From positions 1,622-65,621 of the IMG/VR virus record IMGVR_UViG_3300027690_000119: a stretch of DNA of 64,000 nt; one strand, 5' to 3'. The notes under the pieces are model-generated. The model searched no databases. It saw only the letters and a list, made by a program, of their open reading frames with translations, and had not been told where the DNA came from. Origin of the DNA: a virus. The translations under genes were made by a program, and so were the position numbers. Position 1 is the first letter of the stretch. Every line of letters starts with the position of its first letter. Positions 4,142-47,509 of the stretch are shown here, in pieces.

Positions 4142-5011
4142 ATGAAAGATCCAAGAATCTATCTGTTGAGGATACTTCTAATCTTTTCGATCTTATTCGC
4201 TTTCTCCTCCGATGGTTTGACAAAAATGTATAAATGGGTCGATGAAAACGGCCAGATACATTGGTCAGATTCGGCCCCACCACCGGATGGAAATGCCAAT
4301 ATCCTGAAAGAGTACAATACCATTGAAGATAAGAAAGCGGCAAAAATCCCCTATAGTTCTCAGACCAAAAAGGCCGATTTCACCAAGCCAAAATCCGACC
4401 GTTGGTCTGGGAAGGTTGTTGATGTGTTAGACGGCGACACCATAGCCGTCATGAAAGGATCGGATCGTGTTAATGTCCGCCTCTATGGCATTGACACGCC
4501 TGAGAAATCCCAGTGGTACGGGCAAAATGCCAAGGCGTTCACGTCTTCTCAGGTGCTCGGAAAGGTGGTCAAGGTTGAGGGGTTGGACCTTGACCGTTAT
4601 GGACGGATTGTCGCCATTGTTTCGGTTGGGGATTTAGTCATCAACCGGCATTTGGTGGAATACGGCTATGCATGGGTGTATCGCCAATACTGCAAACAGC
4701 CATTTTGTTCAAATTGGCAGGAACTTGAAGCTGTAGCCCGTGGAAAGAAGAGGGGACTGTGGAAAAACCCGAACGCCATACCCCCTTGGGAGTATCGCCA
4801 CGCAAAGAGGACTGAATCAACGCCGCCACCTCCTCCAAAAGCCCCCGCAACAACAGAGTGCGACTGTTCAAGGGACCGCTATAATTGTTCTAATTTCAAG
4901 AGCCGCGCAGAGGCCCAGGCATGCTTCGACAAATGTGTGAGGGAAGTCGGCAGGGACATCCACAAACTTGATCGGGATGGAGACGGCAGAGTGTGTGAAT
5001 CCTTGCCATAG
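4142..5011 (+). CDS. Exported thermonuclease (SNase) with DUF4124-like N-terminus and Excalibur-like C-terminus
   Basis: Signal peptide; MYKWVDENGQIHWSDSAPP; VLDGDT, RLYGIDTPE, DRYGR SNase motifs; C-terminal YNCSNF...LDRDGDGRVCESL. Confidence 0.9.
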   Translation: MKDPRIYLLRILLIFSILFAFSSDGLTKMYKWVDENGQIHWSDSAPPPDGNANILKEYNTIEDKKAAKIPYSSQTKKADFTKPKSDRWSGKVVDVLDGDTIAVMKGSDRVNVRLYGIDTPEKSQWYGQNAKAFTSSQVLGKVVKVEGLDLDRYGRIVAIVSVGDLVINRHLVEYGYAWVYRQYCKQPFCSNWQELEAVARGKKRGLWKNPNAIPPWEYRHAKRTESTPPPPPKAPATTECDCSRDRYNCSNFKSRAEAQACFDKCVREVGRDIHKLDRDGDGRVCESLP

Positions 5012-5038
5012 CCATTTAGTGAGTGATTTCAATCTTTA

Positions 5039-5064
5039 AAAGCTCACTTCCATGAGTGAGCTTT
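5039..5064. promoter_or_regulatory. Perfect 10-bp inverted repeat between nuclease and methyltransferase (terminator or operator)
   Basis: AAAGCTCACT-tccatg-AGTGAGCTTT. Confidence 0.5.
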
Positions 5065-5080
5065 ATTTGCCCAGACAAAT

Positions 5081-5989
5081 ATGCGAGTATGCCCTATGAT
5101 CAAACCATATTTCACAACTTCACATGGAGTTCTCTACGCCGCCGATTGTCTTCAAGTCCTTTCCCAGATGAAATCGGGTGTCGTTGATACCGTTTTTGCC
5201 GATCCGCCGTTTAACCTCGGGAAGGACTACAAAAATGCGTATAACGACAAGGTGGAAAGGAAGGAGTATCTCGGTTGGTGTCGGGAATGGATACTTGAGT
5301 GTTGTCGCGTCTTGAAACCCGGAGGAGCCTTTTTCCTTTACGCAACACCTGAACTTGCGGTTCAGTTTGCCCCAATTATGGGAGAAATACTTGATTTTCG
5401 TCACTGGATTGCACTTTCAATGAAAGGAACCTTCGCGAGAGGAAAAAAGCTGTACCCGGCGCACTACGCCCTTCTCTACTATACACGGGGAATGCCGCGT
5501 GCATTCAATAAGCTTCGTTTGCCAATTGAAACCTGCCGACATTGCGGAGGCGAGATTAGAGATTATGGGGGGCATCGCAACAAGATGAATCCAGAAGGAG
5601 TAAATTTAACCGATTTTTGGGCGGATACCTCGCCCAACCGCCATAAAAAATTTAAAATCCGTCCGGGTGTCAATGAACTCAAGCTGGTTATTCCTGAGCG
5701 TGCCATCCTTATATCAACAGAACCAGGGGATATCGTCTTCGATCCTTTTGGAGGAGGAGGTTCCACCTACCAGGCCGCAGAGAAACATCATCGAAAGTGG
5801 ATTGGTACAGAGCTGTACGACTCAGAGCATATCCGAAAGCGCATTGAAGAGAATTATCCATTCTCTGCTTCAAAAAAACCAAAATACAACTTTAAGGAGC
5901 TTTTCAAAAATGAAGATAAGCAAGATGAGGTTTTATGGCGGGTCAAGGGAGAAAGTGTGTCGTCTGGGATTGGCTCAGTTATTTCTTGA
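5081..5989 (+). CDS. Type II beta-class DNA methyltransferase, M.BamHI-like (N4-cytosine)
   Basis: FADPPFNL motif IV before DPFGGGGS motif I; LYPAHYALLYY and CRHCGGEIRDYGGHRNKMNPEG closely resemble M.BamHI as recalled. Confidence 0.9.
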   Translation: MRVCPMIKPYFTTSHGVLYAADCLQVLSQMKSGVVDTVFADPPFNLGKDYKNAYNDKVERKEYLGWCREWILECCRVLKPGGAFFLYATPELAVQFAPIMGEILDFRHWIALSMKGTFARGKKLYPAHYALLYYTRGMPRAFNKLRLPIETCRHCGGEIRDYGGHRNKMNPEGVNLTDFWADTSPNRHKKFKIRPGVNELKLVIPERAILISTEPGDIVFDPFGGGGSTYQAAEKHHRKWIGTELYDSEHIRKRIEENYPFSASKKPKYNFKELFKNEDKQDEVLWRVKGESVSSGIGSVIS

Positions 5990-6467
5990 ATTACAGGAAC
6001 TCCTTTTATCCATTGAGATTTATATTCAAAACAAAAAGCAAGCTAACGGTGCAGGCCGCCTACGAGAGTTGATTGACGAGGGATTCGGTTGCTATAAAGA
6101 TTGGGTTAATTCAGCAACCGGCGATATTGATTGGGTCAAGCGAATTCGTTACAATCAAACCATCATATCGAGAATCGGAGTGGAAATTCAAGTATCGGGC
6201 AGAAGCGATCTCCTTGCGCGAGACATTGTGCATATCAGGAATAGCCTTCAAGACAGTCACATTGATGTAGGCGTTATTGTCGTTCCATCAAACGAATTGG
6301 CGTATTTTCTGACTGATCGCGTTGCCGACTTTAACTATGCCATCCGCTACGTTGAGGAGGAGCTTCGCGAGGCAAAATCTTACCCAATTGTCGTTTTGGC
6401 CATAGAGCATGATGGATTCTCAGATGAACCGCTTCCGAAAAAGAAGACTAATCTGGGAAAAGCTTAA
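5910..6467 (+). CDS. BamHI/BglII-family restriction endonuclease
   Basis: Probable start MKISK at 5910 overlaps the MTase end. D...GVEIQ active site; LAYFLTDRVADF resembles BamHI LAYYLTDRVTNF. Confidence 0.8.
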   Translation: MKISKMRFYGGSREKVCRLGLAQLFLELQELLLSIEIYIQNKKQANGAGRLRELIDEGFGCYKDWVNSATGDIDWVKRIRYNQTIISRIGVEIQVSGRSDLLARDIVHIRNSLQDSHIDVGVIVVPSNELAYFLTDRVADFNYAIRYVEEELREAKSYPIVVLAIEHDGFSDEPLPKKKTNLGKA

Positions 6468-6489: not shown

Positions 6490-9400
6490 TCACGCCCTTT
6501 TTCGTTGCGCTTCCCCCCACATCTGCCGCTTCACCCGTGACCGTGCCCGCTTGCGGGCCGCGTTGACGATATCGCGGACCACCTCGGCCTTGCGGGCGTC
6601 CGGCATGCGCGACCATTTGTCCGTGCCCACAATCTGTCTGAGCCTGCTGAACGTCAGGGCGCTCGATCGCTCCATATACGCCTCGTACTGGTCGTCGGTC
6701 ATCTGCCTGGGAGTGCCGCCGATGGAAATGGTCCGCGCCGGGGGTCCCATGGGGAGAACCCCGGCCGTCTTGAGCCGGTTGATCTCCTGCATGGCCCGGG
6801 CATGGGCCGGATCGGTCGAGACCACCGGGGGCTTCAAGAATTCCGCCAGGGCCTGGGGCGTCATCTTCTTCACCACTGCGGGGAGGTGCCTGGCTGCATC
6901 CTTGTAAACGGCGCTATACCAGTGCGTTGCCCGGTCCAGGCTCTCCCGCTCCTCCGTTGACAGGCCTTTCAAAAACGTCTCCCGGTCCTTGACGCCGATC
7001 CCCCACAGGGGACTCGCGGCCCGCACGCTGGCATCCATCCCCTGGAGGCTTCCGCCCAGCTCCGCATACTTCTCCAGATAGCCGTGGGCCGCCTTCAGGT
7101 CCCCGTACCGGAGGGCCTGCTTGTAATAATAGAGGGCGTTGGCCGTGTCGCTCGGGATCACGGCGGAGGGTTCTTTCTGCCGTTTTTTCTGCCAGTCGAT
7201 CACGGCCTTGCGCGTGTTCCAGTAGGCCATCTCGCCCGGGTCCGCGGTGTAGAATCCCATGGACAGCACATCGTTCCACAGCCGCTGGGCCACGTCCCGG
7301 CCCCGCTTGGGCTTGCCTGCGGCCCACTGATAGGGCTTTTGCAGACTGAATATGCTCGCCACGTGCTCCCATTTGTCCCTTATCGGCCTCGGAAACTCGG
7401 GATCCGGGAACAGGGACCGGCCCATGATCAGCTCGGCCGCGCCCTTCACGTCCGGCCTGGAGGCCAGCAGGAGCCTTTGCCCCGGGGCCTTCATCATCTC
7501 CTTCACCTGATCGCCCCCGGTCTTCTTTCCCTCGGCCATCTCTTCCAGGTCTTTTACCGCATCCTGAAGATTCAACCACTCCAGGGCGTCGGCCAGGGCG
7601 CCCTCGAACCGCAGAGAAACAATGCTCCCGTCCTCGCGCCGACCCAGTATAATATGGAGGTCCCGCCGCTGGATCTCATCCATCTCGTCATCCTCATCCG
7701 GGAACATGAGCCGGTTCCAGAGCATAATCGCGCCGTAGAGCATGGAGGCCTTTATCCCCAGAACGGCCCCTCTCCATCCAAGCTGAATCCCCATGGCCGC
7801 CAGCCCCCGGGCCGCCGACTTCCCTTCATGGGGGAGGTTCCACATGAGCCGCACATACCGGGGCGCGTTGATCTCCAACCAGCTCCAGAAGGGAAGCGCG
7901 TAACTCCTGAGCCACTGCCCCCCCTTGCTCACGTTGCCGTAATCGCCGATCAGCTCCCGCGCCAGTTTGGCCGCGATCTCCTCCCTTTTAGCCCCGGCCT
8001 GTCGAAGGGCCTCGATCTCCTTGCGCGACGAGGCCCCCACCAGGTCCTTGCCCGGTACGCGGCCTGCCTGGATCTGATCCTTGAAATACCGGTATGCGGC
8101 CAGGCGGAGGAGATTTTCCCGAAACACGGTAAATCGCTTGATGTTCTTCCAGTATTTCTGGGCCAGGTTTTCCTTGTTCATGAGGACATTCAGGAGTCCT
8201 TCCTTTTCCAGAAACCGGGTTACGTCGTGGGCCTCCTGCAAGGCCCAGCCCGACCCCAACACATCGCGCTCCCGGGCCTCGGCCAGCTCGGCAGCCACCT
8301 CTTTGGATGGAGCCTTGACCGCCAGGTCCTTGACCGCCCTGGGAAGGTAATGGGAGATGATTTTAGGCGCATAGGCCATGGCAATGTCCAGGTCGCCCGA
8401 CATATTGTTGATGTTGTACTTGATGACCCGGAAGGGATTGAGGAGGATCCACTGTTTCCATCCGCCCTGGGCGATCCGCAGTCCCTTTGAGATCACGTCT
8501 CCGGACGGGGGTTCCTGGAAATGATCCAGGGTATGGGCCACCTCTTTGGGAATCACCCATTTTTTGCCGGGGACCCGGGCGAACACGTGGGCCACCCGCT
8601 CGGGGATCGGTTTCTGTCCGCTTCGCATCTGCTCCAGCATCTGGTCGGTGACGGCATTGACCGCAAACCATACCCCGTCCGGCCTGGGGTCCCATGCCAC
8701 ATACCCCTCCGGGATCATGTCCCGCCACGTCTTGAGGTCCTTGCCCAGGGTCTCCTCGATGAGCCGGTTCCGTTCGAGAATTGCCTTGAAGATGCCAGCC
8801 GCCTGCTTGGATCCTGCGCCGGGATTGGCCAGGAGATGGGCCAGGAAGGGAAACCAGCGGGGATGGTCGAAAGAGAGGGACGGCCTCGGCTCGCCCGTCC
8901 CTCGTTTGCCGCCCGCCTCTTTCCACTCGGCCACATCTTCGAGATACTCCCGGTGGGCCTCGGCCATGTCGCTCACCACATCCTCGAATCCCGTGCCCGC
9001 CGCCTCGTACAGTCCCCCGGATTTCACCTCGTCTCCGGCCATCTGGATGAGTTCGCCGGTATTGATGGCGATGCGCTGCCTGAAGGGGGCCAGCGGATCT
9101 TCCAGCGGGTTGGGATTGCGTCGGTACAGCTCCGTCAGGTTGGCGTGCTTGGCGGCCTGCTTGCAGGATGAAAAGATGTCGGCCCGCTCCTCAATGGTGT
9201 CCATGGCGGCCTTGACGTCAAGCTGGTGGAGGGCCTGGGAGATGACCTCGAATTCGCTTTCAACATACTCCGTGGAATAGTCCAGCAGGCTTCCCTTGCG
9301 GGCACGCTGCCAGCCCTGGCGGTGGAGCCGCACGTCCTTTTCGCGGGCCTTTTCCTTGAAACGGTATTCCTGGTCCAGATTTTCCAGGGCGCGATACAAC

Positions 9401-18116: not shown

Positions 18117-19451
18117 CTATATCCCTCCCATCGAAATGCCTGACTCGTAAAACCCGGCAGGCACGATCACCCAGTTGGTATTGAGCGCCTCGCCCGTATT
18201 CTGCAAGGCAAGATGTTGCCAGTTGAAATTAGTGGACTGCCCGGATGAATTATCAGCCGGTCCCATGCTCATGTCGTAGGTTTCTTCTTCACCTTGCCGA
18301 TAAGTCTTGAGTAGCCCCACGCGCTCATCTTCCTCGTATTCCAGGAAGTCCGTGGACTTGACAATAATCTCTTCGTTCTTCACCCATACCCGGTATCGGT
18401 TGCCGGTTTCCCCTTCTTCCGGGGGGATTACTTCTTTGACGATCCCTGACGTGTAGAACTCCGACTCTATCCAATGCCCGGAATAGACAAACGGGCTGGT
18501 TTCCTGATGCCACCAACAATGAAGCGGCCATGGCCTACAAAGGATCGCCACAAACTCACCGGGGACGATCTCAGTATTGTCTTCCTTGATCCAGTACCGC
18601 AGCCATTTATGGAGGGGCGGGTCGTCCCCGAACTCCCCGGCATACAGTTCAACGATGGACTTGTCTGTAACAATATACCCCTTGCCCATGAGCTTTTGCC
18701 CTGGGCATTCGCTTTGGACTTTGTCAAACGGGGGCAAGAGTTCGCCGCCAGCCACAACCGACGAGTCAGCGCCTACCGGGTGCATACTTCCAGAGGTTCC
18801 GCTTGACAGGGCGCTCTCGGTCGCCATGGCAATCGCCCACATGACCCCCAACGGTCCAATAGGGAAAGCGATATATCCAACGAACGAAGAACTTGCCTCT
18901 GATGGCCCGGCAGACACATAACATGCGCTATTATCTCCCGGCGTGATCTCAAACCGGGCTTGTTTGATGGTGTATTCCTTATCTCCCGGCAACTCCTGGG
19001 TTACAAGGGAAAGGCTATTCCCACCCGTGGATGTAGTTGGATCTGGCGAAGTAACAGGGGCCTTTAGGGGTTTTGCATCGTCCACCTCACTAAAGAATCC
19101 CTCCAGCTTTTCCATTGTTTCTTCAATGGTCTTCCCGCCGAACTTCAGGACGTTCCCCGCTCCAAATAAATACCAAATGTCATAGGCAATAGGTAAACCA
19201 AGGCCTACCCGAACGGGGATCTTGTCATCCCCAAAATTGAGCGTCCTATCTCCCGGGGCGTAGAGAAGTCGGTCCGACATAATGCTCAAGTCTACCATGT
19301 CAAACAAGGCCTGCATCCTCAACATGATAGTCCCAACGATGTCATACCCAAGGCTCTGCTTTGACCCGAACCGTTCCAGATACGTTATCATCGGGTTTGA
19401 TTCAGAGAAATAATCTTTCAGATATCCGTCGTGCAATAGGTCTTTTGGCAT
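18117..19451 (-). CDS. Virion structural protein with OB-fold-like C-terminal segment
   Basis: 444 aa in the tail cluster; SGIVKEVI...RYRVWVK...YEEDERVGLLK resembles spike/baseplate OB folds. Confidence 0.55.
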   Translation of the reverse strand: MPKDLLHDGYLKDYFSESNPMITYLERFGSKQSLGYDIVGTIMLRMQALFDMVDLSIMSDRLLYAPGDRTLNFGDDKIPVRVGLGLPIAYDIWYLFGAGNVLKFGGKTIEETMEKLEGFFSEVDDAKPLKAPVTSPDPTTSTGGNSLSLVTQELPGDKEYTIKQARFEITPGDNSACYVSAGPSEASSSFVGYIAFPIGPLGVMWAIAMATESALSSGTSGSMHPVGADSSVVAGGELLPPFDKVQSECPGQKLMGKGYIVTDKSIVELYAGEFGDDPPLHKWLRYWIKEDNTEIVPGEFVAILCRPWPLHCWWHQETSPFVYSGHWIESEFYTSGIVKEVIPPEEGETGNRYRVWVKNEEIIVKSTDFLEYEEDERVGLLKTYRQGEEETYDMSMGPADNSSGQSTNFNWQHLALQNTGEALNTNWVIVPAGFYESGISMGGI

Positions 19452-20806
19452 TATCCTACACTGTGGGTCAGGGTGTTTAAAATATCCGCATTTGCAATAG
19501 CTTGAGCTGCGGCTACAGCGGCAACAGCTTTTTGAGATGCAGCCACCCTCCTGGCTTCATTAATTCTTGTTCGGTCAGTCGCTATATCTGCTCGTAGAGA
19601 TTTTTCCTGGTCAAGAAGCTCCTTTTTATTATCCAAGTTCTCTATTTTCTTCCCATGGATCTGATTATCAGCGTCCTTTTGCAGGTTCACGGAATCAACC
19701 TTGAACTGGCCTTCCGCTTCTTCATATTCGATCTCTTTTGCGTTCAATTCTTGCTGAGTGGAAACCTGATCTGTTACCGCAGTCGTTTCGGATTCTACAT
19801 ACCCGGTTTCATCATCTATCAGGTAAGCCTCGCTGATAAGCCGGGAGTTCTCTGCATTCGCGATAAGCAATTCAGATTGTTCAATGGCTAATTCACTGTC
19901 GATTAATCCCAACTTGGCCGTATCCGCTTCGACATTCGCGGTTTCCGCGTCAATCTGATTCCCCCTTGCGCCGGTCTCGACAATATCCAGGTTTGTTTCA
20001 GAAACCCGTATGGCAACTTCTCTGATATCGTGCTGTATCTCCTGACCCCTGACCTCAGACTTTGCAAGGTCAACCGCCGTCATGGAAATATCCAGGTCCA
20101 CCCCGGCCTCTTGAACTTCGGTTTCAGATACCCTTACGCTGATTTCAGCCTCTTCGTTTTCGGCTTCAGTGATCTGTAATTCGGTATTGGTTTTGTCAAG
20201 GGCCACCTGGGTAATGGCAAGCTGGATATTCAGCCCTTCGATTTGGGCATTGATAAGCTCAAGGTCTGCCCGTGCCGATCGTAGTTCCTGCTCGGTAATG
20301 TCCACGTCCACCAAGTCTTGCGCCACTTCCTCAAGGTCGGTTTGGATCTCAAGTTCCTTGATACGTTGTAAAGCCTTGTCCTGGGCAAGTTCAAGCTCCT
20401 GCTGTTTGGTCACAAGGGCTTCCTGGTCCGCTTCGAGGGCTTCTATCTTTGCGTCGTATTCATCGTCAAGGGCGTCAATCTCCGCTTCACGGGTGGCCTT
20501 CCATTCGTTATGGATCTGCTGTTCAATGGACTCGACATAGCGCTTGGCCGCCACGTCCAGAACGAACATGGCCTCTTCATGGGTGATTTGGGCGATGGAT
20601 GCATTGTAGGTGTCCACCAGCCTTTGAAGATCCTCAGCCTCTATTTCCTGAAGGTAACTATGTCCATGGAGATAGGTGTTGGCGTACATCCCGAACAGGA
20701 TGGTTCTCTCCTCTTCATGGACAGTCCCGAACGGCCCGTTAAACTGAAACGGGTTCCAGATAGTGGCTTCCCGTGCTATGGCCCTGTTGTATATTGCGTC
20801 AGTCAT
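19451..20806 (-). CDS. Long coiled-coil virion protein
   Basis: 451 aa, acidic heptad-rich; start/stop coupled to neighbours. Confidence 0.7.
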   Translation of the reverse strand: MTDAIYNRAIAREATIWNPFQFNGPFGTVHEEERTILFGMYANTYLHGHSYLQEIEAEDLQRLVDTYNASIAQITHEEAMFVLDVAAKRYVESIEQQIHNEWKATREAEIDALDDEYDAKIEALEADQEALVTKQQELELAQDKALQRIKELEIQTDLEEVAQDLVDVDITEQELRSARADLELINAQIEGLNIQLAITQVALDKTNTELQITEAENEEAEISVRVSETEVQEAGVDLDISMTAVDLAKSEVRGQEIQHDIREVAIRVSETNLDIVETGARGNQIDAETANVEADTAKLGLIDSELAIEQSELLIANAENSRLISEAYLIDDETGYVESETTAVTDQVSTQQELNAKEIEYEEAEGQFKVDSVNLQKDADNQIHGKKIENLDNKKELLDQEKSLRADIATDRTRINEARRVAASQKAVAAVAAAQAIANADILNTLTHSVG

Positions 20807-20814
20807 GCTTCACC

Positions 20815-22227
20815 CTATGACAGTACATGAACAAGTCTGCTGGTCAACTGTGCCTGTGCCGCCGCCGCCGTAGTCCCTTCGCGTTCTGAAACCTGTGAAG
20901 TAGTGATAGATTGAATAGTTAGAACCTCATCGTCAATCTCAATGTCAGCTACCTCTCCAAGCGTTTCTAATTGAGTCGTCATCGAATGCTCATCGTAACT
21001 AAGTTGAGCGTCTATCATTTCGCTGTTGTTCTCTATCTCTGCTTCAAGGGCCTCTGCCTTCGCTGTGAGATATTCCGTTGCGTTCGTAACCCTGGCCGTA
21101 AGCAGGTCGGATCTCCCGGTCATTCTCGCCACTTCCAGGGCAAGCCTCGCTTCTTTCAGGCTCAAATTGGCTGCTGCATAGTTTGACTTACTCGTCAAGA
21201 TCGTTTGTTTTGCGCTGGCATTTTGGACCGCTACATCTGCAATTTCTTCTTTGACATCCGCAATGGCCTCCTTGACCAACATCCATGCATCAAGTTCGGC
21301 CGCATACGCAATCAAAGCCGTTGACTTGGCGTTTATCTTGGGAATAAGGAGGTTCTTCGCGGTGATCAGGCTTTGCCGTACCGTGTCCAGTCCGGTCAGG
21401 GATGTAACGTACTGGCTCAGGTATGTGGCGTTTAAAAGCTCCTGGTTTACAATCGGTTCCTTGGCTGTGATGAGAGCTTGTTTCTTTTCAACCAATGCCT
21501 CTTTTGCCGCAATCAGCGTCACAATGGCCTCTGCAATCGCCTCCCTTGCCGTGATGAGTTCAAGCCGCTTGTCGTTCAGGCCTTCCTTCTCGGTAATAAG
21601 GGCCTGTTTCCTGTCCGCATTGTTCTCCTCTTCGTCAATGATAAGCTGCTGTTTTTCAAGGACTGCCTCAATGTAGGGGATAACCTCAAGTTTTTTGTTG
21701 GCTGTTACCAGCTTGGCGTTCAGGAGTGCGGTTTCATAAGAGAACGTAGACCGCTCAACATCGAAGAATTGGCGTTTCAGTTCTTCAAGGTCTATTTCAT
21801 ATTGGGCCTTGGCCGCAATGATAACCAATTGCCGCAGATCCGTTTCGATCTTGAGGCGGTTTAGGGCCTCCTTATCCATCTCACGCAATAGCTTGTTGTC
21901 GGCAAACTCCCGTTTCAGTTCGGTAAGGGTTTGGGCTTTTTCAAGCTGCCATGCGATCATGGCCTCTTTCACGGCAATGTCATAGTCAAATCCCGTTTGG
22001 GCAAGCTCTCTCTCAATCATCTGCTGGACAATGGCGAAATTGGCCTCACTCAGCTTGAACTTGGCTTCCCGTTCAATGGCCGTGGCCGCGTCTGCCAGGA
22101 AACCCGGTCGGTAGAGAAACCCCTGACCGGCGACTTGGTTTTCTGCCTGCTTATGTGCAGAGAGATACCCGTCCATGATGGGGCGCTTCTTGATTCTCCA
22201 TAGGGCGTTTTCAGCGGTTTGGGTCAT
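20815..22227 (-). CDS. Long coiled-coil virion protein
   Basis: 470 aa, A/E/K/L/I-rich heptads. Confidence 0.7.
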   Translation of the reverse strand: MTQTAENALWRIKKRPIMDGYLSAHKQAENQVAGQGFLYRPGFLADAATAIEREAKFKLSEANFAIVQQMIERELAQTGFDYDIAVKEAMIAWQLEKAQTLTELKREFADNKLLREMDKEALNRLKIETDLRQLVIIAAKAQYEIDLEELKRQFFDVERSTFSYETALLNAKLVTANKKLEVIPYIEAVLEKQQLIIDEEENNADRKQALITEKEGLNDKRLELITAREAIAEAIVTLIAAKEALVEKKQALITAKEPIVNQELLNATYLSQYVTSLTGLDTVRQSLITAKNLLIPKINAKSTALIAYAAELDAWMLVKEAIADVKEEIADVAVQNASAKQTILTSKSNYAAANLSLKEARLALEVARMTGRSDLLTARVTNATEYLTAKAEALEAEIENNSEMIDAQLSYDEHSMTTQLETLGEVADIEIDDEVLTIQSITTSQVSEREGTTAAAAQAQLTSRLVHVLS

Positions 22228-22235
22228 AATGGCCT

Positions 22236-23849
22236 TTAATTATAAACGGTTACATTAAAATGACGGACGCTTGGATCTTCCAAGGGTCCAGAGGGTGTTG
22301 CTTTTGCAGCAGCAAATAAATCTTCAATGGCTGATGTAAAAGATTCATTTTCCGACATAGTCATAGGACTTGTATCCATGGCATCACGATCCGGGAAAAA
22401 CTCGACAGCAGCTATAATATCCTCATAAACCTCTGAATACGCCGCAGAATAATATTCTTCCCCGCCAGGATACAATTCCATGTCTTCAGGTGGAACATTT
22501 AACGTATAGGATAGTATTGGGGCTGAATAGTAATAAGTTTGAAACATGACCCTTGGAGTTCGCTTCACAAGAACCGGATTCTTTGGGTATATCAATCCAG
22601 GTTCCCCACCCCATTCAGCTAATTCACCAATTCCATAATAAGTGATATCCGAAAACGAACAGGCATTATTGGTAGGTGTCATTCCATCCCATTCGCGCGT
22701 TGATTCCATGCTCAAAGGAATCGAGGCAAGAGACCCCAATGGAGTATCAAAAGACACCGAACCACTTCTCGAATTGCTTTCATATTTTGCGCCAGAGCCA
22801 GACAATACATAACTAAAATCAGGTAGATATGTTTTAACTCTATAGCAGTACTCGTAAGCATCCTCGGTATTTGTGAACTGAGACCACTGCCTAACGACAT
22901 AAAGTATGCTTTCTGGATTGCCTATTTCTCTCAATAAAGCACTTACAAATGGACCCGTAACCCAAACCCCGGCAGATATATCTTCATCATTCTTATTGGG
23001 TTGATTCAATGCCCCATACGCTCTTGATGTAGCCGTGATGGACTGGATTTCGTCCTCCCACCAATGCACACCTTCACCGCTGCCTCTCGATCCTGAACAC
23101 GACGAAGTCCTGTTGGCGCTGACAGTATTTTGATACCCCAACTCTCCAAATTCACTTCTTCCATCGATTTCGCCGGACCCACTGCAACCAGTAGAATCGG
23201 ATATCTCATTAACTCCAGGAGGCAAACTACAATTCGCCAAACACTCGACTGGAGGCAGTAAGTCAGGCTGAGGCTCCTCTGAATCACAGGTATAAACTTC
23301 AGCCGCGTTATATAAAGTAACTTCAGGCAGGCCGACCCTGGATTCTTCTGGAACACTCTCATCCCATGGCCTGCTCATTAACCACAGATACAGAACGTCA
23401 TCGGGAGTTAAGCCTGTTAAATCTGCTTTCCGTGGGAATAATATAGGTTCGTCGTCCCATTCGATACTTGCAACACATTCATTGGCAACATCCCAAACCG
23501 TGTACCAGGTTCCGTTATTGGCGATAGCACAAAGAAGCAGGTAACATGACAAGCATTGTTTTATCCCATCCACAAACCCCACAACCCGCACCGGCGCACC
23601 ATCCGAGTCACACATCACAATCACTTCATCGTCTACGGCAAACGCCGAAGCAGCCCCGTAAATAGCGCCATTGGACCTTAGTTCGCTGTCCGGTTCGCAA
23701 TGGTAATAGAGAGGAACATCCGTGCCATTCTGGTAGCCCTCAACTGTCACGTCTGCAAGGTCGTTGGTTGAATCAACAGCGGTAATGATGCCCTTTGCAA
23801 AGATGTGATTAACGGCATCCCCGAAGTTGTCATGTTGGTATTTTGGCAT
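22236..23849 (-). CDS. Putative receptor-binding/tail protein
   Basis: 537 aa; OB-like N-terminus (KGIITAVDSTNDLADVTV...AFAVDDEVIV); AT-richer, Cys/Tyr-rich C-terminal part. Confidence 0.55.
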   Translation of the reverse strand: MPKYQHDNFGDAVNHIFAKGIITAVDSTNDLADVTVEGYQNGTDVPLYYHCEPDSELRSNGAIYGAASAFAVDDEVIVMCDSDGAPVRVVGFVDGIKQCLSCYLLLCAIANNGTWYTVWDVANECVASIEWDDEPILFPRKADLTGLTPDDVLYLWLMSRPWDESVPEESRVGLPEVTLYNAAEVYTCDSEEPQPDLLPPVECLANCSLPPGVNEISDSTGCSGSGEIDGRSEFGELGYQNTVSANRTSSCSGSRGSGEGVHWWEDEIQSITATSRAYGALNQPNKNDEDISAGVWVTGPFVSALLREIGNPESILYVVRQWSQFTNTEDAYEYCYRVKTYLPDFSYVLSGSGAKYESNSRSGSVSFDTPLGSLASIPLSMESTREWDGMTPTNNACSFSDITYYGIGELAEWGGEPGLIYPKNPVLVKRTPRVMFQTYYYSAPILSYTLNVPPEDMELYPGGEEYYSAAYSEVYEDIIAAVEFFPDRDAMDTSPMTMSENESFTSAIEDLFAAAKATPSGPLEDPSVRHFNVTVYN

Positions 23850-23852
23850 GAT

Positions 23853-25556
23853 CTATCTCGTCAAAATAATCGGCGCCAGTTCGATGAAGTCCAAGCTCTC
23901 AAACCCTTGCAGCTTCAACGTCCACGTCCGTCCATATAGGTTGCGCCCGATAGTCGCCTTCGAGTCGGTGATGGTATAGGTTGCGCTCCCGGACTCGGTT
24001 TCAAGGCGAATGGCCGGCGTCGTCCCCCCGCTCAAACCGAAATATGCCTTGCGAAATCTCTTTTTCCTCTGGGTCCCGAAATACGTCTCGGGCAGCACAA
24101 TGCCCGGCGTAATCGCTCTCCCCGCGTCAGTGGCCCCGGTCAGTACATAGATTCCTTTCGATTTGCACCCGAAAGCCTCATTTTGAAAAACCGCATAGGA
24201 ATTGAAATCGAACCCGCTGTAAACGGACGGAGCAAACTGATTCCCGTTCAACACCCAGCACTCCCAAAGCTCATCACCCAGGAGGATCGTAATGCCGGCC
24301 GTCAGGGTTTCTTCAACCGACAGATTGAGCCGCTGCTGAACCGTCAGGCTGGCAATGATCTCCAGGGCGTCGGACAGGGTTTCGTTGATCCGGAGGCTTC
24401 GAAGAACCGTCTCTGTAATTTGCAGATTTTCGGTCAGGGCCAGGATCGCACGGAAGGCCAAGGTGGCTGTGTCAGAGGCCTTCAGGGACTCGGCCACATC
24501 CTCGTTCCACTGCCAGCCCAATGCGTCCGCTGCCACGGCCTCCTCTTCCGCCGTGCAATACAGGGTCCTTATGACCGTGACCGCAGCAACCACCCCCAGG
24601 GCCTCGGCAATAACCCGATTGAACGTCATGGCCGGGGTAACAACCCCTGAGATCCCCAGGGATTCAGCTACACTGGTTATCATCCGATGCACAAATGACG
24701 TTGTGTCCGTGATAGTGAGGGATTCCGCGGCCGTCTCATTGAACACCTGACAGATGCAAACGCTTCCAAAGGCGCGGAGCATGTCGGTGACGGTCACCGT
24801 GCCGGACCAGAGGCTTGACACGCTTTCCGATGCTTGGAGGTATTCGTTGATCTCCCAGCCCATCTCTGCGGCAATGGCTTCACAGACGTTCAGGGTCTCC
24901 TCAACCGTCAGTATCCATTGCAGGCCGATCTTTTCATAGATGCGGGCGGATTCATTGGCGGACAGGGGAGGAACCAAAAGTACCACATCCGATATGGAGA
25001 AGCTGCCGCTTGCCCGAAAAGGCTCGACAAAAATCTGGATCTGAGGCGTAGCTTGAGCAGCAGCCTCTGCCTTGAACGGTGGACATGATAGCTTATGCTG
25101 AAGGTCCGGTCCCGACATGGAGGCCGTCGCGACAAAAGGCGGACAATCGATAATGATCCCTGCATGAATCCCGGAGCAGTGGAGCGAGGCCTTGGCTGTC
25201 AATGCCTGCGATGGAACCTCGATCTGCGGCGTAGCCTGAAGAGATCCCTCCGCTCGAAACGGCGGGCAGTTGACAACAACCCCTACGAAAATACCGGAGC
25301 AGCTCAGCGACGCGGCCGCGGCCATCGGCTGCAAGGGAATTTGGAGCTGCGGCGTGCCATGGAGCGAGGCGACCGCGGAGAAGGGAGGGCAGGAGAGCTG
25401 TCCCGGAACACTGGCATCCTGCAATGTAATGCTGGGTTCGCCCGGGACGCTTAGGGGGAGCGGACCGACAACAGACCCTGCCGAACCGGCGTTCGCGTCA
25501 GGCGCTGAAATCGCCGGAAAACCCGGGATCTCAAGTTGTTTGATGATGTCGGCCAT
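23853..25556 (-). CDS. Tail structural protein with CPPF repeats
   Basis: 567 aa; four CPPF-containing units, then E(S/T)L-x repeats. Confidence 0.65.
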   Translation of the reverse strand: MADIIKQLEIPGFPAISAPDANAGSAGSVVGPLPLSVPGEPSITLQDASVPGQLSCPPFSAVASLHGTPQLQIPLQPMAAAASLSCSGIFVGVVVNCPPFRAEGSLQATPQIEVPSQALTAKASLHCSGIHAGIIIDCPPFVATASMSGPDLQHKLSCPPFKAEAAAQATPQIQIFVEPFRASGSFSISDVVLLVPPLSANESARIYEKIGLQWILTVEETLNVCEAIAAEMGWEINEYLQASESVSSLWSGTVTVTDMLRAFGSVCICQVFNETAAESLTITDTTSFVHRMITSVAESLGISGVVTPAMTFNRVIAEALGVVAAVTVIRTLYCTAEEEAVAADALGWQWNEDVAESLKASDTATLAFRAILALTENLQITETVLRSLRINETLSDALEIIASLTVQQRLNLSVEETLTAGITILLGDELWECWVLNGNQFAPSVYSGFDFNSYAVFQNEAFGCKSKGIYVLTGATDAGRAITPGIVLPETYFGTQRKKRFRKAYFGLSGGTTPAIRLETESGSATYTITDSKATIGRNLYGRTWTLKLQGFESLDFIELAPIILTR

Positions 25557-26216
25557 TTAATCGATATCTGAAAAATCCATGGAGATTTCATACTGCACCT
25601 CAAGCGCCGAGAGGTGCTGCACGGCCACGGGCGTTCCAAGAACGTCACGCGCCACCAGAAAAGATAGAGGGGTCGATGAGCCAACTAAATGCCCATACCA
25701 ATACAGGCCCACCTCTTTTACGGTGATCTCGGCCCCGCTGTTGTTATTGAATTGCCTCGCGTGGGTGGCAGTCCACGTCTTGGTTCCTCCGTTGTAGCTC
25801 ATGACCGGCACAGCTTGCGCTTGGTAGGCCATCTGCCCGCTGCTCGTTCCGGTTGGGATCAATGCATCCAGACTGTGTTGCTCGGTGGAAAATGCCGCAT
25901 CCCCGGTTCCGATAACGATACCGTTGGTAGAGACCCCCGAACCGGACGTCATGCCATTCGAAGTTGGGCAATAGTGAGACCCTCGATTCGAGGTATAGGC
26001 GCCGGCATAAGTCGCTCCACTTATTTGCCGAGATGTCAGATACCCGGCGCCCCAATCGGAAGTTGTACCGGAGGGCATTGCGTCCGACATTGCGGAGAAC
26101 AGCAGATGCCAGGCATTTCGGGTCCAACTGTGCCCCTTCTCCCGGTATTGGGCAATTACCTTTCCGCGCCGATCTACCAGCTTAATGCCGATAAAAAGAT
26201 CCGGTAACTTGATCAT
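25557..26216 (-). CDS. Minor tail protein
   Basis: 219 aa; HARQFNNNSGAEITVKEVGLY...LVARDVL...YEI pattern of phage minor tail proteins. Confidence 0.65.
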   Translation of the reverse strand: MIKLPDLFIGIKLVDRRGKVIAQYREKGHSWTRNAWHLLFSAMSDAMPSGTTSDWGAGYLTSRQISGATYAGAYTSNRGSHYCPTSNGMTSGSGVSTNGIVIGTGDAAFSTEQHSLDALIPTGTSSGQMAYQAQAVPVMSYNGGTKTWTATHARQFNNNSGAEITVKEVGLYWYGHLVGSSTPLSFLVARDVLGTPVAVQHLSALEVQYEISMDFSDID

Positions 26217-26239
26217 GGTTTTACTCCTTCATGCCTCAA

Positions 26240-26689
26240 TTACGCCGCGGCGTGCCCCAACTGAAACGCCACATTCTGGAATTGCAGGCCGCTCCCTGCC
26301 GCAATCGTGTAGTCCGCGCCGTAGTCGATGCAACCGATTATGGTTTTATCTGCCGTGGTGTCGTCGTACACAAGGATTGATCCCGTCGGCCCAATACTCC
26401 CGCCGTCTGCGGTCCAGGTGGGATTTACGAACGCCACGTCGAGCCGATCGTCGGTGTCGTTTTCCGTCACAGAGTCAACGTCGATCTCCTGCCCGCCCGT
26501 GGTGTATCCATTGCCGTTGGCGACCTCCTTGGACAGGGCATCGACAACAGCCTTCGTGGCGTGGGCGTCCTTGTCGAAAACGAATGTATCGTCCATGAGC
26601 ATCGCCATGAACGTATCGTTCTCGAAGTCGATTTTTTTCGTTCCAAGCATGTAAAAGAAATGATTGGATAGCGTTGCTACAATGGCCAT
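26240..26689 (-). CDS. Minor tail/structural protein
   Basis: 149 aa; GYTTGGQ...NPTWTA...CIDYGAD motif common in phage tail regions. Confidence 0.7.
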   Translation of the reverse strand: MAIVATLSNHFFYMLGTKKIDFENDTFMAMLMDDTFVFDKDAHATKAVVDALSKEVANGNGYTTGGQEIDVDSVTENDTDDRLDVAFVNPTWTADGGSIGPTGSILVYDDTTADKTIIGCIDYGADYTIAAGSGLQFQNVAFQLGHAAA

Positions 26690-26740
26690 AACTGATCTCC
26701 TTGTCGATTCAGGACGCCTGTCGGGCGTCCCGGTTATGGT

Positions 26741-27346
26741 TTATGTGTTGGCAATGGTGATCTGGTAGATCACGGCCACGTTATCGCCGGCCTCTACGGG
26801 CTTTGGGGACGTGAACTTCTTGGCCGCCATGAGCTTGCCGGCCGTATCGGTCGGATCGCTGGACGTGCCCAGAAATGCCCCGTACGCGGTCAGAGACGCT
26901 TCAAGGGTAAACTCCGCTTTGTTGGCTGCGTTGGTGATGACCCCACTGGCGGCCGCGGCGGTGTTGTAGCTGGGATAGGTGTTCTCTACGAAAGAAGCGG
27001 CCTGGATAGCTCCGTATGTCCCTGCTGCGCCCAGGCAAGCCGCCGCCGTATTGGATGTGGCCGGGGTCACGTTGTTGGCAAACAGGCCCACGCACCAGAT
27101 CTTACTGGCCGCCTTGGACGTGGCCCCGAAAACAATGTTCTCCAGGTAGTCCAGGCCTTCGTAGGTGAAGGTATTGGGGGGCTCCCAATAGCCGCCGCTG
27201 ATGAGGTTCCCTTTTCGGTACACGTCGCACCGCCACTGACCGATCACCCGGATATGGCTTTCAAGGGCGTGTTTGGCCGCGTATCGAACGTCCGCGTTGT
27301 CTCTCAGCGGGTCGAAAAAACTGTTAGGGATCACTATGTTGTTCAT
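26741..27346 (-). CDS. Virion structural protein
   Basis: Start MNNIVIP with AAGGAG RBS; PNTFTYEGLDYL...AYGAFL...KLMAAKKF motif. Confidence 0.7.
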   Translation of the reverse strand: MNNIVIPNSFFDPLRDNADVRYAAKHALESHIRVIGQWRCDVYRKGNLISGGYWEPPNTFTYEGLDYLENIVFGATSKAASKIWCVGLFANNVTPATSNTAAACLGAAGTYGAIQAASFVENTYPSYNTAAAASGVITNAANKAEFTLEASLTAYGAFLGTSSDPTDTAGKLMAAKKFTSPKPVEAGDNVAVIYQITIANT

Positions 27347-27379
27347 GATCAGTCTCCTTTGATGGGTGATCCCGGACAC

Positions 27380-27460
27380 AAAAAAAGGCCGGGATGGAGG
27401 ATGTGGCCTCCATACCGGCCTTTTTTTCCTTACACGCTCAGGGGATCAGCCCGGCGTGCG
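27380..27460 (-). promoter_or_regulatory. Late-operon leader motif, copy B (before tail operon)
   Basis: CACGC/GCGUG hairpin with CUGAUC loop, A-tract, GGCCG-GU-AUGGAG-GCCACAUC-CUCCAU-CC-CGGCC, U7. Confidence 0.75.
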
Positions 27461-27479
27461 CCCAAGGTATTGGTTGGTG

Positions 27480-28727
27480 TTAAATCACCTTTCCGTTCCT
27501 CATCACTTCAATCGTGGCCTCATCGCTGATTCCCACTGAATCATTGTCAGGCCCCGAGTAAAAACTGGTCAAAACCTGAAAGTCCCCGTCCCGCTGTCGG
27601 TAGAGTGCAGCCCCTTCACTGCCGGGCGCGAACTTCACCTTCCCCTGCGACAGGTTGAATATCCTGCCCGCCGGATTCCCGGCCACGAATCCCTCCTGGC
27701 TCACCCACACGGGCACGCTCACGTGCTTTTTCTCGGGCGGGGATATCGTATCTCCCAGCTCGATAATGTTGTTGGCATATACGAGGGTTCCGGGAATGGC
27801 CCCACTGCCCACGTCCAACTGCCGCATCTGTGAGGGTTCCGTGCCCAACAGGCAATAGGTGCGATCATCGCACCCGATAAAGAGTCCGGTTCGCATCCGG
27901 GCGATCATCGTTCCGGGTGTGGCGAACTCAAAACGGTTGGTTCCCAATTTGAACCAATCCAAATGAAACGGCTCCGAGTAATAGAGGATGTTGTCTCGCA
28001 TCCCCCACATGCGCCCGAACGCATGACAGAGATAATCCATATATGGGGGTTGGTTCACAAACAGGGTGGGCAAAGGCTCCACGGTCGGGACATGGGTAAT
28101 GGCGTCCACGTCGCCGATGCGATAGAAGATGTGGTCGTTCGGGTCCGTACACCAGACCATGGTATTCGCCGACCGGTTGGTTACGCTGATCCCGCCCGAG
28201 CTTGTCAGTTCGATGCCGGCAATGGGTGAACTTCCGCTCAGGTTGGGGGTGTTGTCATAGGAGGTAAGGCAGACATAATAGACGCCAGGCTCCAGGCCCC
28301 CGGTCGTGGCCGTCAGAACCGGGCCGTTGGGTATGGGAAGGCCCCAATCGCCGAGGGAATTGGTGGCCGGGTTGAATATGCGGTTGGCGTATCGGTTGCT
28401 GATGTAGACCAGGTGGCCCACTTCAGCGTACCAGGTGCGGGCCTTGATCCCGCCGATGTCGCCTATGGTCATAGCGGTGCGGCCAAGAACGCGCTTCAGC
28501 GTCGTTCCGTCCATGACCAGGTGACAGGTGGCCCCGGCCCATTCCGAATGTCCATCCTCCAAATCAATGATCTTGGTGTATCCGTCCCGGCACTCGATCC
28601 TTCCCTTGGCCGTCACATCCGCATTCAGCACGATCCTGGGCTCCACAACGCCCCGGTCCACAAACAGCCCTTCCGTGGACTTGACGTTGTTCATCCCGGT
28701 AAAGCGATCCATCCGAATAGGCTTCAT
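27480..28727 (-). CDS. Tail tubular/DNA-stabilisation (nozzle-like) protein
   Basis: 415 aa; beta-propeller-like; FTGMNN start, GRMWG, LYYSEPF motifs; position after adaptor. Confidence 0.7.
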   Translation of the reverse strand: MKPIRMDRFTGMNNVKSTEGLFVDRGVVEPRIVLNADVTAKGRIECRDGYTKIIDLEDGHSEWAGATCHLVMDGTTLKRVLGRTAMTIGDIGGIKARTWYAEVGHLVYISNRYANRIFNPATNSLGDWGLPIPNGPVLTATTGGLEPGVYYVCLTSYDNTPNLSGSSPIAGIELTSSGGISVTNRSANTMVWCTDPNDHIFYRIGDVDAITHVPTVEPLPTLFVNQPPYMDYLCHAFGRMWGMRDNILYYSEPFHLDWFKLGTNRFEFATPGTMIARMRTGLFIGCDDRTYCLLGTEPSQMRQLDVGSGAIPGTLVYANNIIELGDTISPPEKKHVSVPVWVSQEGFVAGNPAGRIFNLSQGKVKFAPGSEGAALYRQRDGDFQVLTSFYSGPDNDSVGISDEATIEVMRNGKVI

Positions 28728-28800
28728 TTCTGCTCCCCCCCCCTGCTCCCCGCTTCCTACTCCTTCCGCTCCCCGTTCCGCCTTCCGCGTTCCGCGCTTC

Positions 28801-29697
28801 CTAATACCGCGTACTATACCTCTGTCCCTGCAACCGCCTCAAAGCCGTCTCCCGGTTCACCCGCGCAATCTCGGCCAGATAGAGCTTGTGCAGATTCTCA
28901 AACCGCGACAATCCATCCTCGTAGTCCACATTGAACAGCCAGGCCGCCTCATAGCAGATGGCCCGGCAACTGATGGGTGAAAAACGCCATGAATCGTAGT
29001 CCGAATAGACCGGCGACGGCATGGCCAGGTAGGGCACATAGATCGTGTGCCCGCCCGTCTTTGAGGGTGCATCCAGGTAGACCTCGTAATTGGCCGCCGG
29101 CGTGATCACGTAGGCGTCGCCCTCGGCCCATTCGTCGCTGGTCCCGTTGAACAGGGCGCACACCAAATGCGTGTCGTCCGTCACCTCAAGGACCACGCCG
29201 TCGGACCCGTCCACGGTGTTATGGATGGTGTCCCTGACCTCCACCATGGGTTCAAAGAAGGCCCCCGAATCGTTCAGGATGCACCGGCCCCCGGCCGCCT
29301 CCCCCGCGCTGACGGCCGTGCCCGTGACCATGGCCTGACCGCTTTGCACGTCCCGGACGGCCAGCCTTCCGGGGATGTCCTTGGCCTCCGTATGGTTGGC
29401 TCGGTAGATCTTCTCGAACGAGGAGACACGCGGCCAGTAATCGCCATCCCCGTTGTTGTACTTGGCCAGATAACGGCCCTGCCGGTCCTTGAGATAGAGC
29501 CCGATAAAATTGGCAGGCAGGTTGTAGGCCTGCTGGCCCTCCACTGTGCCGATCTCGGCCATGGCCGTCAGGATCCGGGTCTGTCGTACAAAGTCTATGG
29601 CCGCAGCGTCCAGGCAGTCGTAAAAAAACCGCTTGTCCGATTCCGCAATCCCCCCCAGGGCCTGGACCCCGTAGTTATACAGCGTCTTTCCGTCCAT
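28801..29697 (-). CDS. Head-tail adaptor-like protein
   Basis: 298 aa; AAIDFVRQTRIL...YNLPANFI and AICYEAAW pattern. Confidence 0.6.
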   Translation of the reverse strand: MDGKTLYNYGVQALGGIAESDKRFFYDCLDAAAIDFVRQTRILTAMAEIGTVEGQQAYNLPANFIGLYLKDRQGRYLAKYNNGDGDYWPRVSSFEKIYRANHTEAKDIPGRLAVRDVQSGQAMVTGTAVSAGEAAGGRCILNDSGAFFEPMVEVRDTIHNTVDGSDGVVLEVTDDTHLVCALFNGTSDEWAEGDAYVITPAANYEVYLDAPSKTGGHTIYVPYLAMPSPVYSDYDSWRFSPISCRAICYEAAWLFNVDYEDGLSRFENLHKLYLAEIARVNRETALRRLQGQRYSTRY

Positions 29698-35085: not shown

Positions 35086-35190
35086 CCGACTTCCGCGCTC
35101 TCTACTCCCCACTCCCTGCCCCTTGCTCTTTGCTCTTTGCCCCATGCTCCCTACTGCCTACTCCCTACTCCCTGCTCCCTGCTCTCTCCT
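35086..35190. repeat. Heptamer tandem array (CTCCCTG/CTCTTTG/CTCCCTA variants)
   Basis: More than ten degenerate 7-nt units at the portal 3' end. Confidence 0.8.
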
Positions 35191-43167: not shown

Positions 43168-43587
43168 TCAATCATCCCTCTCTATCCCGAGCCTGGCCCT
43201 CATATTGGACTCTGTGTCGGACATATAAGCAGATAGGATTTGCAGACAACCGTCATTCATCTCTATCCCCAACCTGGCTCTTATATTTCCCACCCTGTCC
43301 CGCGCATGAGAACCCAGGATCTCCAGACAACCATACAGACCGTCCATCAGCCTATGCTTTTTGTCAATTCCACATCCTTCCTCCGACCAATCGGCATCGT
43401 TCATCTGTCTATACAAATCCCCTATCGCCTCAATCCCGACCGAGATCTTATCAATCTGATCAAGATCAAACTCCACCCCGAACATCCGTCTCCCCAACAG
43501 ATCCATAACTGTCTTTGGCTTTTCCGTATCTGTCGAGCCATCCCCTCCAACGCCGGTCATTGGCTTTTTCTCTTTTTCCGATCTCAT
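43168..43587 (-). CDS. Hypothetical phage protein
   Basis: 139 aa; (I/M)RARLGIE repeated twice; coupled to the BRO stop. Confidence 0.6.
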   Translation of the reverse strand: MRSEKEKKPMTGVGGDGSTDTEKPKTVMDLLGRRMFGVEFDLDQIDKISVGIEAIGDLYRQMNDADWSEEGCGIDKKHRLMDGLYGCLEILGSHARDRVGNIRARLGIEMNDGCLQILSAYMSDTESNMRARLGIERDD

Positions 43588-47493: not shown

Positions 47494-47509
47494 AGCGACC
47501 CAGGACCGG

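Follow-up and report, generated by a model that had tools for sequence, protein, structure and literature searches.

A 3491-residue polyvalent protein with four predicted enzyme domains between conserved end modules in a provirus

What is a single gene of 3491 codons, standing last in the virion block of a provirus, likely to do for its phage? The question is raised by a stretch of 64,000 nucleotides (the window), bases 1622-65621 of the IMG/VR provirus record IMGVR_UViG_3300027690_000119, which comprises 70,939 bases and was rated 100% complete by CheckV. An earlier note on this stretch had described the product of the gene (hereafter the giant) as a large polyvalent protein in the sense of Iyer, Aravind and colleagues. 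Polyvalent proteins are phage or plasmid proteins with 2-15 disparate domains, whose genes adjoin late genes and which are expected to accompany the DNA into the host (Iyer, Burroughs, Anand, de Souza and Aravind 2017, PMC5512222). This assignment was borne out by the presence of four enzyme domains and by the position of the gene at the end of a podovirus-like virion module; one polypeptide joins at least two disparate enzyme domains, and its gene lies in a provirus beside virion genes. The giant is a further representative of a class that was already known, and it extends the concept without changing it.

By analogy with other phage giants, the giant is probably a late product that travels inside the capsid of a short-tailed temperate phage and enters the host together with the DNA. 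We infer packaging and injection from the position of the gene, from the SLT or M23 domains of relatives that share its C-terminal module, and from the presence of non-homologous giants (JC1 gp69 and phi24B gp47) in virions.

Gene, modules and linkers

The open reading frame (ORF) of the giant starts with ATG and contains no internal stop, and an AGGAG box (Shine-Dalgarno site) is located 8 nucleotides 5' of the start codon. The gap to the stop of the preceding gene, which encodes 378 residues, is 12 nucleotides, and the giant gene is therefore placed in the same transcription unit. Its length and about 50 homologues of full-length scale indicate that the ORF is not due to chance. The modular plan was derived from BLAST and hidden Markov model (HMM) comparisons with relatives, and is given here in window positions, the parts being listed in their order along the chain.

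6490..16965, minus strand: giant gene (3491 codons and a stop), final gene of the late/virion block
15691..16668, minus strand: N-module, residues 100-425, with Gly/Ala-rich hydrophobic helices
14362..15048, minus strand: class I S-adenosylmethionine (SAM) methyltransferase cassette, residues 640-868, Pfam core 684-826
12106..12477, minus strand: RadC-clade JAB domain, residues 1497-1620, with H1573, H1575, S1583 and D1586
11704..12006, minus strand: small alpha/beta domain after the JAB domain, residues 1654-1754, confident in the AlphaFold2 model
10951..11595, minus strand: zincin-like metallopeptidase domain, residues 1791-2005, with H1882-E-x-x-H1886 and E1935
10141..10896, minus strand: type I phosphoribosyltransferase (PRTase) domain, residues 2024-2275, with the phosphoribosyl pyrophosphate (PRPP) loop V2163-VVVDD-ILTSGGS
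6901..10020, minus strand: C-module, residues 2316-3355, about 1040 residues
6520..6837, minus strand: optional terminal domain, residues 3377-3482, about 105 residues

Regions of unknown type lie between the methyltransferase and the JAB domain, and NCBIfam scans of these middle regions returned nothing. Five long low-complexity linkers, charged and either acidic or Pro-rich, are found between the modules, and cysteine makes up 0.1% of the residues.

The hydrophobic helices of the N-module span residues 195-232, 292-319 and 376-394, and the module carries the invariant motifs GLWEA.PEA.G and E..TE..T..GQ. It is common to eight other giants and to residues 343-626 of gp01 of Klebsiella phage LASTA (HMM 4.5e-46; also detected by tblastn). 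It matched nothing in Pfam, NCBIfam, PHROG or the PDB (the profile search of PDB sequences gave nothing meaningful), its profile did not match Bcep22 gp75, and no stand-alone N-module of 178-620 residues was found.

The C-module contains a core, LIGDYGN..(x)..PF(Y/W)SW.EINAPRY, which is followed by a hydrophobic helix at residues 3055-3086. About 45 giants, 2072-5609 residues long, contain it at 21-50% identity. Searches of Pfam, NCBIfam, PHROG and the PDB, including a profile search of PDB sequences, gave no match to it, nor did tblastn against 50,697 phage records. A relationship of the C-module to the family NF032893 ('tail-700') or to the tails of LASTA gp01 or Bcep22 gp75 was rejected as unsupported on hmmsearch results and hhalign probabilities of 0.4-10%. 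The NF032893 (PLxRFG) profile had no match in residues 2300-3491 at E values up to 1, with hhalign probabilities of 2% or less; relative P0046 scores 104.8 bits on the same profile. The terminal domain is also present in P0050, P0055, P0051, P0028 and P0002, all of which except P0002 lack the main C-module, and most C-module proteins end ahead of it. What was described earlier as a 'virion ejection-type scaffold' amounts to these two uncharacterised end modules, neither of which matched a known ejection protein.

The four enzyme domains

The positions and motifs given in the earlier note (ILEIGTGNG, the JAB site, HEAFH and VVVVDD) were exact. The domain-wise profile and AlphaFold check that it had proposed supported the methyltransferase and the JAB domain by Pfam, and the JAB and PRTase domains by fold; the zincin was left without a Pfam model, and the PRTase stayed below threshold when the whole protein was scanned.

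In the methyltransferase, motif I (ILEIGTGNG) is found at residue 701, and the Pfam models Methyltransf_25 (1.8e-18) and Methyltransf_11 (2.4e-18) matched residues 684-826 with 67.4 bits against a cut-off of 27. Its closest sequence relatives in the PDB are small-molecule methyltransferases such as Rv0560c, its NCBIfam matches are arsenite, ubiquinone and fatty-acid methylases, and the DNA-methylase motif (D/N/S)PP(Y/F/W) is absent from residues 640-868. 'Small-molecule-type', as the enzyme had been called, is a fair description on these grounds, which include the lack of the narrower (D/N)PP(Y/F). A single weak PHROG match was labelled DNA methyltransferase (phrog_11787, E 0.0033, 17.4 bits), and the other Pfam, NCBIfam and PHROG matches were to small-molecule, RNA or protein methylases. 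Motifs and profiles therefore point to a non-DNA type, whose target may be, for example, a small molecule, an RNA or a protein; the enzyme type behind the claim that the domain methylates a non-DNA target is upheld to this extent. Methylases of polyvalent proteins are mostly DNA adenine methylases resembling EcoKI or TaqI (PMC5512222). A class I non-DNA methylase is an unusual polyvalent cargo, and not a unique one, being also found in P0028 and P0038.

The metal site of the JAB domain, H-x-H-x7-S-x2-D, is intact, as had been noted, and the RadC model of Pfam (PF04002) matched at 3.9e-13, scoring 49.8 bits (cut-off 22.1). For residues 1480-2010, from the JAB domain to the zincin, an AlphaFold2 model was built from a 14-sequence alignment and reached a mean pLDDT (predicted local distance difference test) of 83.8. 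Its JAB part was superposed on RadC of Chlorobium tepidum (2qlc) with a Z score of 15.3 and a root-mean-square deviation of 1.9 A over 114 aligned residues, compared with Z scores of 8.0 or less for the deubiquitinase-type JAMM proteins JAMM1, Sst2 and BRCC36; the Foldseek value given with this comparison was 2.9e-6. By its modelled fold, the domain belongs to the RadC clade and not to the deubiquitinase type, and the suggestion that it cleaves ubiquitin-like conjugates is not favoured. The RadC-type clade has been argued to be devoid of the groove for the ubiquitin tail and may act on nucleic acid, as a nuclease (Iyer et al. 2017, PMC5512222). The small alpha/beta domain that follows is kept after RadC in P0002, P0005, P0008, P0048 and P0055. 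When the block from the JAB domain to the zincin was compared with a library of viral structures, RadC-like, 'large polyvalent protein associated' and MuF-C proteins were retrieved, the best at 6e-26.

The zincin motif HEAFH begins at residue 1882. Eight homologues of 23-35% identity all retain E1883, H1886, a following Gly and, 49 residues further on, E1935, which would be the third ligand; some relatives carry the HExxxH variant (alignment A2). In the model, helix 394-405 carries HEAFH at its C-terminal end, and His1886 falls just past the assigned helix. No Pfam model reached threshold in this region and a profile search of PDB sequences found no match; single relatives gave weak matches to DUF6782 (0.0022), M48 (0.039) and DUF2268 (0.17). 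The structural matches to model residues 312-508 were zincins only, namely 3e11 (Z 6.1), AQ_1354 (1oz9, 5.5), TTHA0227 (2ejq, 5.4), YbeY (5.0), Wss1 (4.7), anthrax lethal factor (4.6) and jannalysin (4.5), all of them below the Z score of about 8 that is clearly above background in this comparison. A zincin domain is likely on the strength of the model, not proven: the HExxH reading agrees with the conserved Glu, His and Glu and with the exclusively zincin fold matches, and finds no Pfam model at threshold. The zincin peptidase is the commonest hub domain of polyvalent proteins, in which it has been suggested to process the polypeptide, and its HExxxH variant has been described there (PMC5512222).

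The PRPP loop of the PRTase, VVVVDDILTSGGS, occupies residues 2163-2175 and agrees with the type I pattern (four hydrophobic residues and (D/E)D, followed by xx(T/S)GG(S/T)); its second Asp is invariant in 47 family members. As previously described, VVVVDD is followed by a GGS-type segment (ILTSGGS), and the model of the domain has a PRTase fold. The Pfam model Pribosyltran (PF00156, cut-off 26.3) gave 23.6 bits with the whole protein and 28.1 bits with the isolated domain, covering only about 55 residues around the loop, and was matched by 45 of the 47 aligned members. With residues 1990-2300 as the query, an exhaustive HMMER search retrieved 173 representative proteins, of which 57 fell below 1e-30. 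The set includes stand-alone proteins of 250-500 residues as well as parts of further giants. A word-index search for stand-alone relatives of 149-475 residues found none, which is attributable to its limited sensitivity, since HMMER found 173. The family profile matches orotate, adenine and hypoxanthine-guanine phosphoribosyltransferases (OPRT, APRT and HGPRT) at the PRPP loop.

All leading Foldseek matches of the AlphaFold2 model of the PRTase (pLDDT 89.1) were type I PRTases, with a probability of 1.0. The best fold match was ComF of Helicobacter pylori (7p0h, Z 10.4 over 158 residues), and about 40 other PRTases had Z scores of 6.4-8.9. The modelled domain thus appears to resemble ComF more than the enzymes of nucleotide salvage, and a role in draining PRPP, which had been put forward, is not favoured for this reason. 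ComF works on single-stranded DNA during transformation, and ComFC takes part in moving DNA through the membrane (PMC9005727). Both RadC-JAB cargo and PRTases of a separate group, which have an arginine in common with ComFC, have been described in polyvalent proteins (PMC5512222). Residues about 2226-2275 (10141-10290, minus strand), which include ARQNLSQRLQGLRD, correspond to the conserved C-terminal helix of the PRTase family (consensus ENA..KLT..LQGLLD in alignment A1; helix 227-253 of the model). The main frame is truly coding at this place, and is not a 'frameshift shadow' of the kind suggested for the nested ORF at 10041-10214.

Genomic setting and route into the host

The genes around the giant were assigned as follows, those on the minus strand by profile matches.

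16978..29697, minus strand: virion genes upstream of the giant, co-oriented, the named parts below and unknown genes
19451-20806 and 25557-26216, minus strand: tail-fibre-like proteins
23853-25556, minus strand: virion structural protein
27480-28727, minus strand: head-closure-like protein
28801-29697, minus strand: SU10-adaptor-like protein, match just under the Pfam cut-off
32130-33101, minus strand: major capsid protein
35165-37063, minus strand: portal
38674-40113, minus strand: large terminase
43584-44564, minus strand: Ant-type antirepressor
45889-47541, minus strand: helicase
4142-5011, plus strand: secreted-type staphylococcal-nuclease homologue (DUF4124, SNase and Excalibur)
5081-5989, plus strand: N6/N4 DNA methylase
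5667-6467, plus strand: weak BglII-like endonuclease ORF, true start probably later

No gene of tape-measure size is present among the ORFs from the adaptor-like gene to the giant, and the phage therefore looks short-tailed. Megablast of the virion block against the 50,697 phage records gave no match.

The region beyond the 3' end of the giant is encoded on the opposite strand, has a G+C content of 47-50% compared with 55-64%, and contains the nuclease, the DNA methylase and the BglII-like endonuclease. These genes of lower G+C content (4142-6467, plus strand) converge on the 3' end of the giant, and look like a prophage-borne cargo region with restriction-modification and nuclease functions. 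Separately, window positions 18001-24000, which hold tail-fibre-like and unknown genes directly upstream, have 47-50% G+C compared with 55-64% in the remaining virion block, which suggests a horizontally exchanged host-recognition segment.

Several known giants share this position. The 4433-residue gp01 of LASTA, whose annotation is 'DarB-like antirestriction' or 'PLxRFG domain-containing protein', also closes the virion block of its phage, a temperate podovirus of about 62 kb, and the homologous N-module of gp01, of about 30% identity, directly follows an SLT domain. The LASTA protein differs in carrying SLT, an Eco57I-type DNA methylase, a helicase and LPD39, and its tail-700 (NF032893) is not detectably related to the C-module. 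Bcep22 gp75 and JC1 gp69 of the Burkholderia Lessievirus phages (about 4500-4600 residues, 'DarB-like') also stand at the end of the virion module in temperate podoviruses of about 61-64 kb; they show no detectable sequence or profile similarity to the giant and have domains of their own (SLT, DNA methylase, LPD3 and LPD38). The same last-of-block position in LASTA gp01 and Bcep22 gp75 supports packaging, as does the place of the P0002 gene after adaptor-like genes.

Among these giants, JC1 gp69 (4515 residues) was detected by mass spectrometry in purified virions with the second-highest score and 51 peptides (PMC9144972). In Stx phage phi24B, proteomics detected the 2811-residue polyvalent protein gp47 in virions; the cryo-EM map did not show it, and it was proposed to be a capsid-packaged ejection protein of this podovirus (bioRxiv 10.64898/2026.04.10.717836). 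The comparison with gp47 is by description only; its authors report LPD5, LPD1, LPD38 and MuF-C, none of which was found here. The virion RNA polymerase gp50 of coliphage N4 (3500 residues) is another podovirus giant that is packaged and injected, with a central enzyme between end regions, and its N-terminal part is needed for injection. No RNA polymerase domain was detected in the giant, and no sequence similarity was found. A zincin domain is located in the region of gp50 that is needed for encapsidation (PMC5512222). DarB of phage P1 is also carried in the capsid and protects phage DNA on entry (as cited in PMC9144972 and PMC5512222), but it is a dyad of DNA adenine methylase and helicase, and the giant has neither domain.

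With the polyvalent proteins of Iyer et al. the giant shares the joining of unrelated enzymes in a single large protein beside late genes, a likely zincin hub with the HExxH/HExxxH variation of alignment A2, and RadC-JAB and ComFC-like PRTase cargo. It differs from them in the absence of LPD domains, in the Methyltransf_25/11 type of its methyltransferase, and in N- and C-modules for which Pfam, NCBIfam and PHROG hold no model.

The following course of events is proposed. The C-module, and perhaps the N-module as well, would serve as a chassis for encapsidation and for exit through the portal-tail channel, and the Gly-rich hydrophobic helices of the N-module could engage the host envelope together with the hydrophobic helix of the C-module. 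The linkers would permit threading or cleavage of the chain, which the zincin may cut into separate enzymes. The cargo would then be active in the early phase of infection. Incoming DNA or nucleotides would most likely be handled by both the ComF-like PRTase and the JAB domain of RadC type, and the methyltransferase would modify a target other than adenine N6 or cytosine N4 of DNA.

Several observations weigh against this proposal. The support for packaging and ejection is by analogy, none of it being direct for the giant or for any C-module protein; as no relationship between the C-module and the tails of LASTA gp01, Bcep22 gp75 or NF032893 was detectable, the evidence from virions is a matter of analogy and not of homology. 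No Pfam LPD domain (LPD1-39) was found in the giant at E values up to 1. LASTA gp01 and Bcep22 gp75 match LPD39, LPD3 and LPD38; such domains are frequent in the class, not obligatory. The zincin rests on modest fold scores (Z 4.5-6.1). In alignment A2, MEEILH stands where HExxH would be expected in P0002, the closest relative (residues about 1900-1910), and the first His of the motif is lost. To judge from this alignment, the zincin of P0002 has probably lost zinc binding, the remaining domain being conserved. The neighbours of the giant are not conserved among its relatives: when the genes directly upstream were compared with those of P0002, P0003, P0004, LASTA and Bcep22, only the adaptor-like gene (in the P0002 contig) and one gene of 149 residues (in the P0003 contig) were similar.

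In phage T7, gene product 16 lengthens the short tail into a conduit that spans the envelope, and the giant might be chiefly a structural ejection protein of this kind, whose enzymes would serve DNA entry, by ComF-like handling of DNA and by RadC action on DNA ends, and not counter-defence. The hydrophobic helices of both end modules, Gly-rich ones in the N-module and a single one in the C-module, would suit such a role, as would the SLT or M23 domains of relatives and the lack of other obvious ejection proteins among the recognised genes of the virion block. The best fold match of the PRTase is to ComF, and ComFC has a part in bringing DNA through the membrane (PMC9005727); a conduit role was also proposed for gp47 by the phi24B authors (bioRxiv 10.64898/2026.04.10.717836). 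However, the cargo of relatives varies widely (toxins, ART, GGDEF, DNA methylase-helicase), which fits effectors better, the giant itself has no peptidoglycan hydrolase domain, and its non-DNA methyltransferase has no obvious role in DNA entry. We consider a mainly structural function unlikely.

It is more improbable still that the giant is a cytoplasmic phage protein, produced in infected or lysogenic cells (for example for counter-defence, takeover or superinfection exclusion), that merely adjoins the virion genes: the support for packaging is indirect, stand-alone PRTases of the same family exist, and the gene closes its block and borders an accessory region (restriction-modification pair and nuclease) of the sort where morons often sit, but it shares the strand of the virion genes, lies 12 nucleotides from the preceding gene with no promoter-like site reported nearby, keeps the same position in P0002, LASTA and Bcep22, has packaged analogues in JC1 gp69 and phi24B gp47, and belongs to a family whose peptidoglycan hydrolases make no sense for a cytoplasmic protein. 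Packaging in the capsid and release with the DNA remain the favoured explanation.

Relatives, exchange of cargo and significance

About 50 giant relatives keep the C-module and differ in cargo, which comprises Zeta toxin, ART, ddrB-ParB, SLT, M23, GGDEF, RelA/SpoT and 2H phosphoesterase domains and Strawberry-notch or SNF2 helicases with N12 DNA methylases. The peptidoglycan hydrolases (SLT or M23) are found in the C-module proteins P0003, P0013, P0030 and P0026, and fit a passage through the cell wall. The exact domain combination of the giant is unique in a collection of 5.8 billion sequences, where its cluster has a single member. Parts of the combination recur, the zincin being found beside the PRTase in P0085, and RadC with the PRTase in P0055 and P0177. 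The closest relative is P0002, with a C-module 48% identical to that of the giant and RadC and Zeta toxin as cargo; its gene lies a few genes downstream of SU10-adaptor-like genes, within a run of genes on the same strand.

Between the methyltransferase cassette and residues 596-824 of P0028, a giant of 4831 residues whose C-terminal module is of another type, identity is 70-71%, whereas true relatives reach no more than 21-50% in the chassis parts. Such identity across different types of C-terminal module points to a recent exchange of the cassette between polyvalent proteins, and the P0028 match is direct evidence of cargo swapping between chassis.

A scan of genome contigs for the C-module, made with its 181-residue core, located this core in 29 loci of bacterial genomes or metagenome-assembled genomes. 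These were mainly from Desulfobacterota, Nitrospirota and Gemmatimonadota, with single loci in Anaerolineales, Bacteroidetes and Rhodospirillaceae bins. The C-module is also present in at least 88 IMG/VR contigs, many of which measure 60-66 kb. A tentative reading, possible but so far doubtful, is that the N- and C-modules together constitute an undescribed and widespread delivery chassis of environmental phages of about 60-65 kb (in Desulfobacterota, Nitrospirota, Gemmatimonadota and other phyla), with interchangeable enzyme cassettes that move between unrelated types of chassis.

Among phage proteins, the polyvalent ones are believed to be the earliest that the host encounters, and almost none have been tested. 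The giant offers four delimited enzyme domains with intact active-site motifs, which can be expressed and assayed individually, and its two conserved end modules, for which databases hold no model, are good candidates for the signal that directs packaging and ejection. Members of the family are frequent in phages whose hosts are poorly studied anaerobic and environmental bacteria. The most useful features are the two undescribed conserved modules and the clear shuffling of cargo. If the tentative reading is true, the chassis would represent a natural system for protein injection that can be reprogrammed, and the C-module would be a new domain for encapsidation and ejection.

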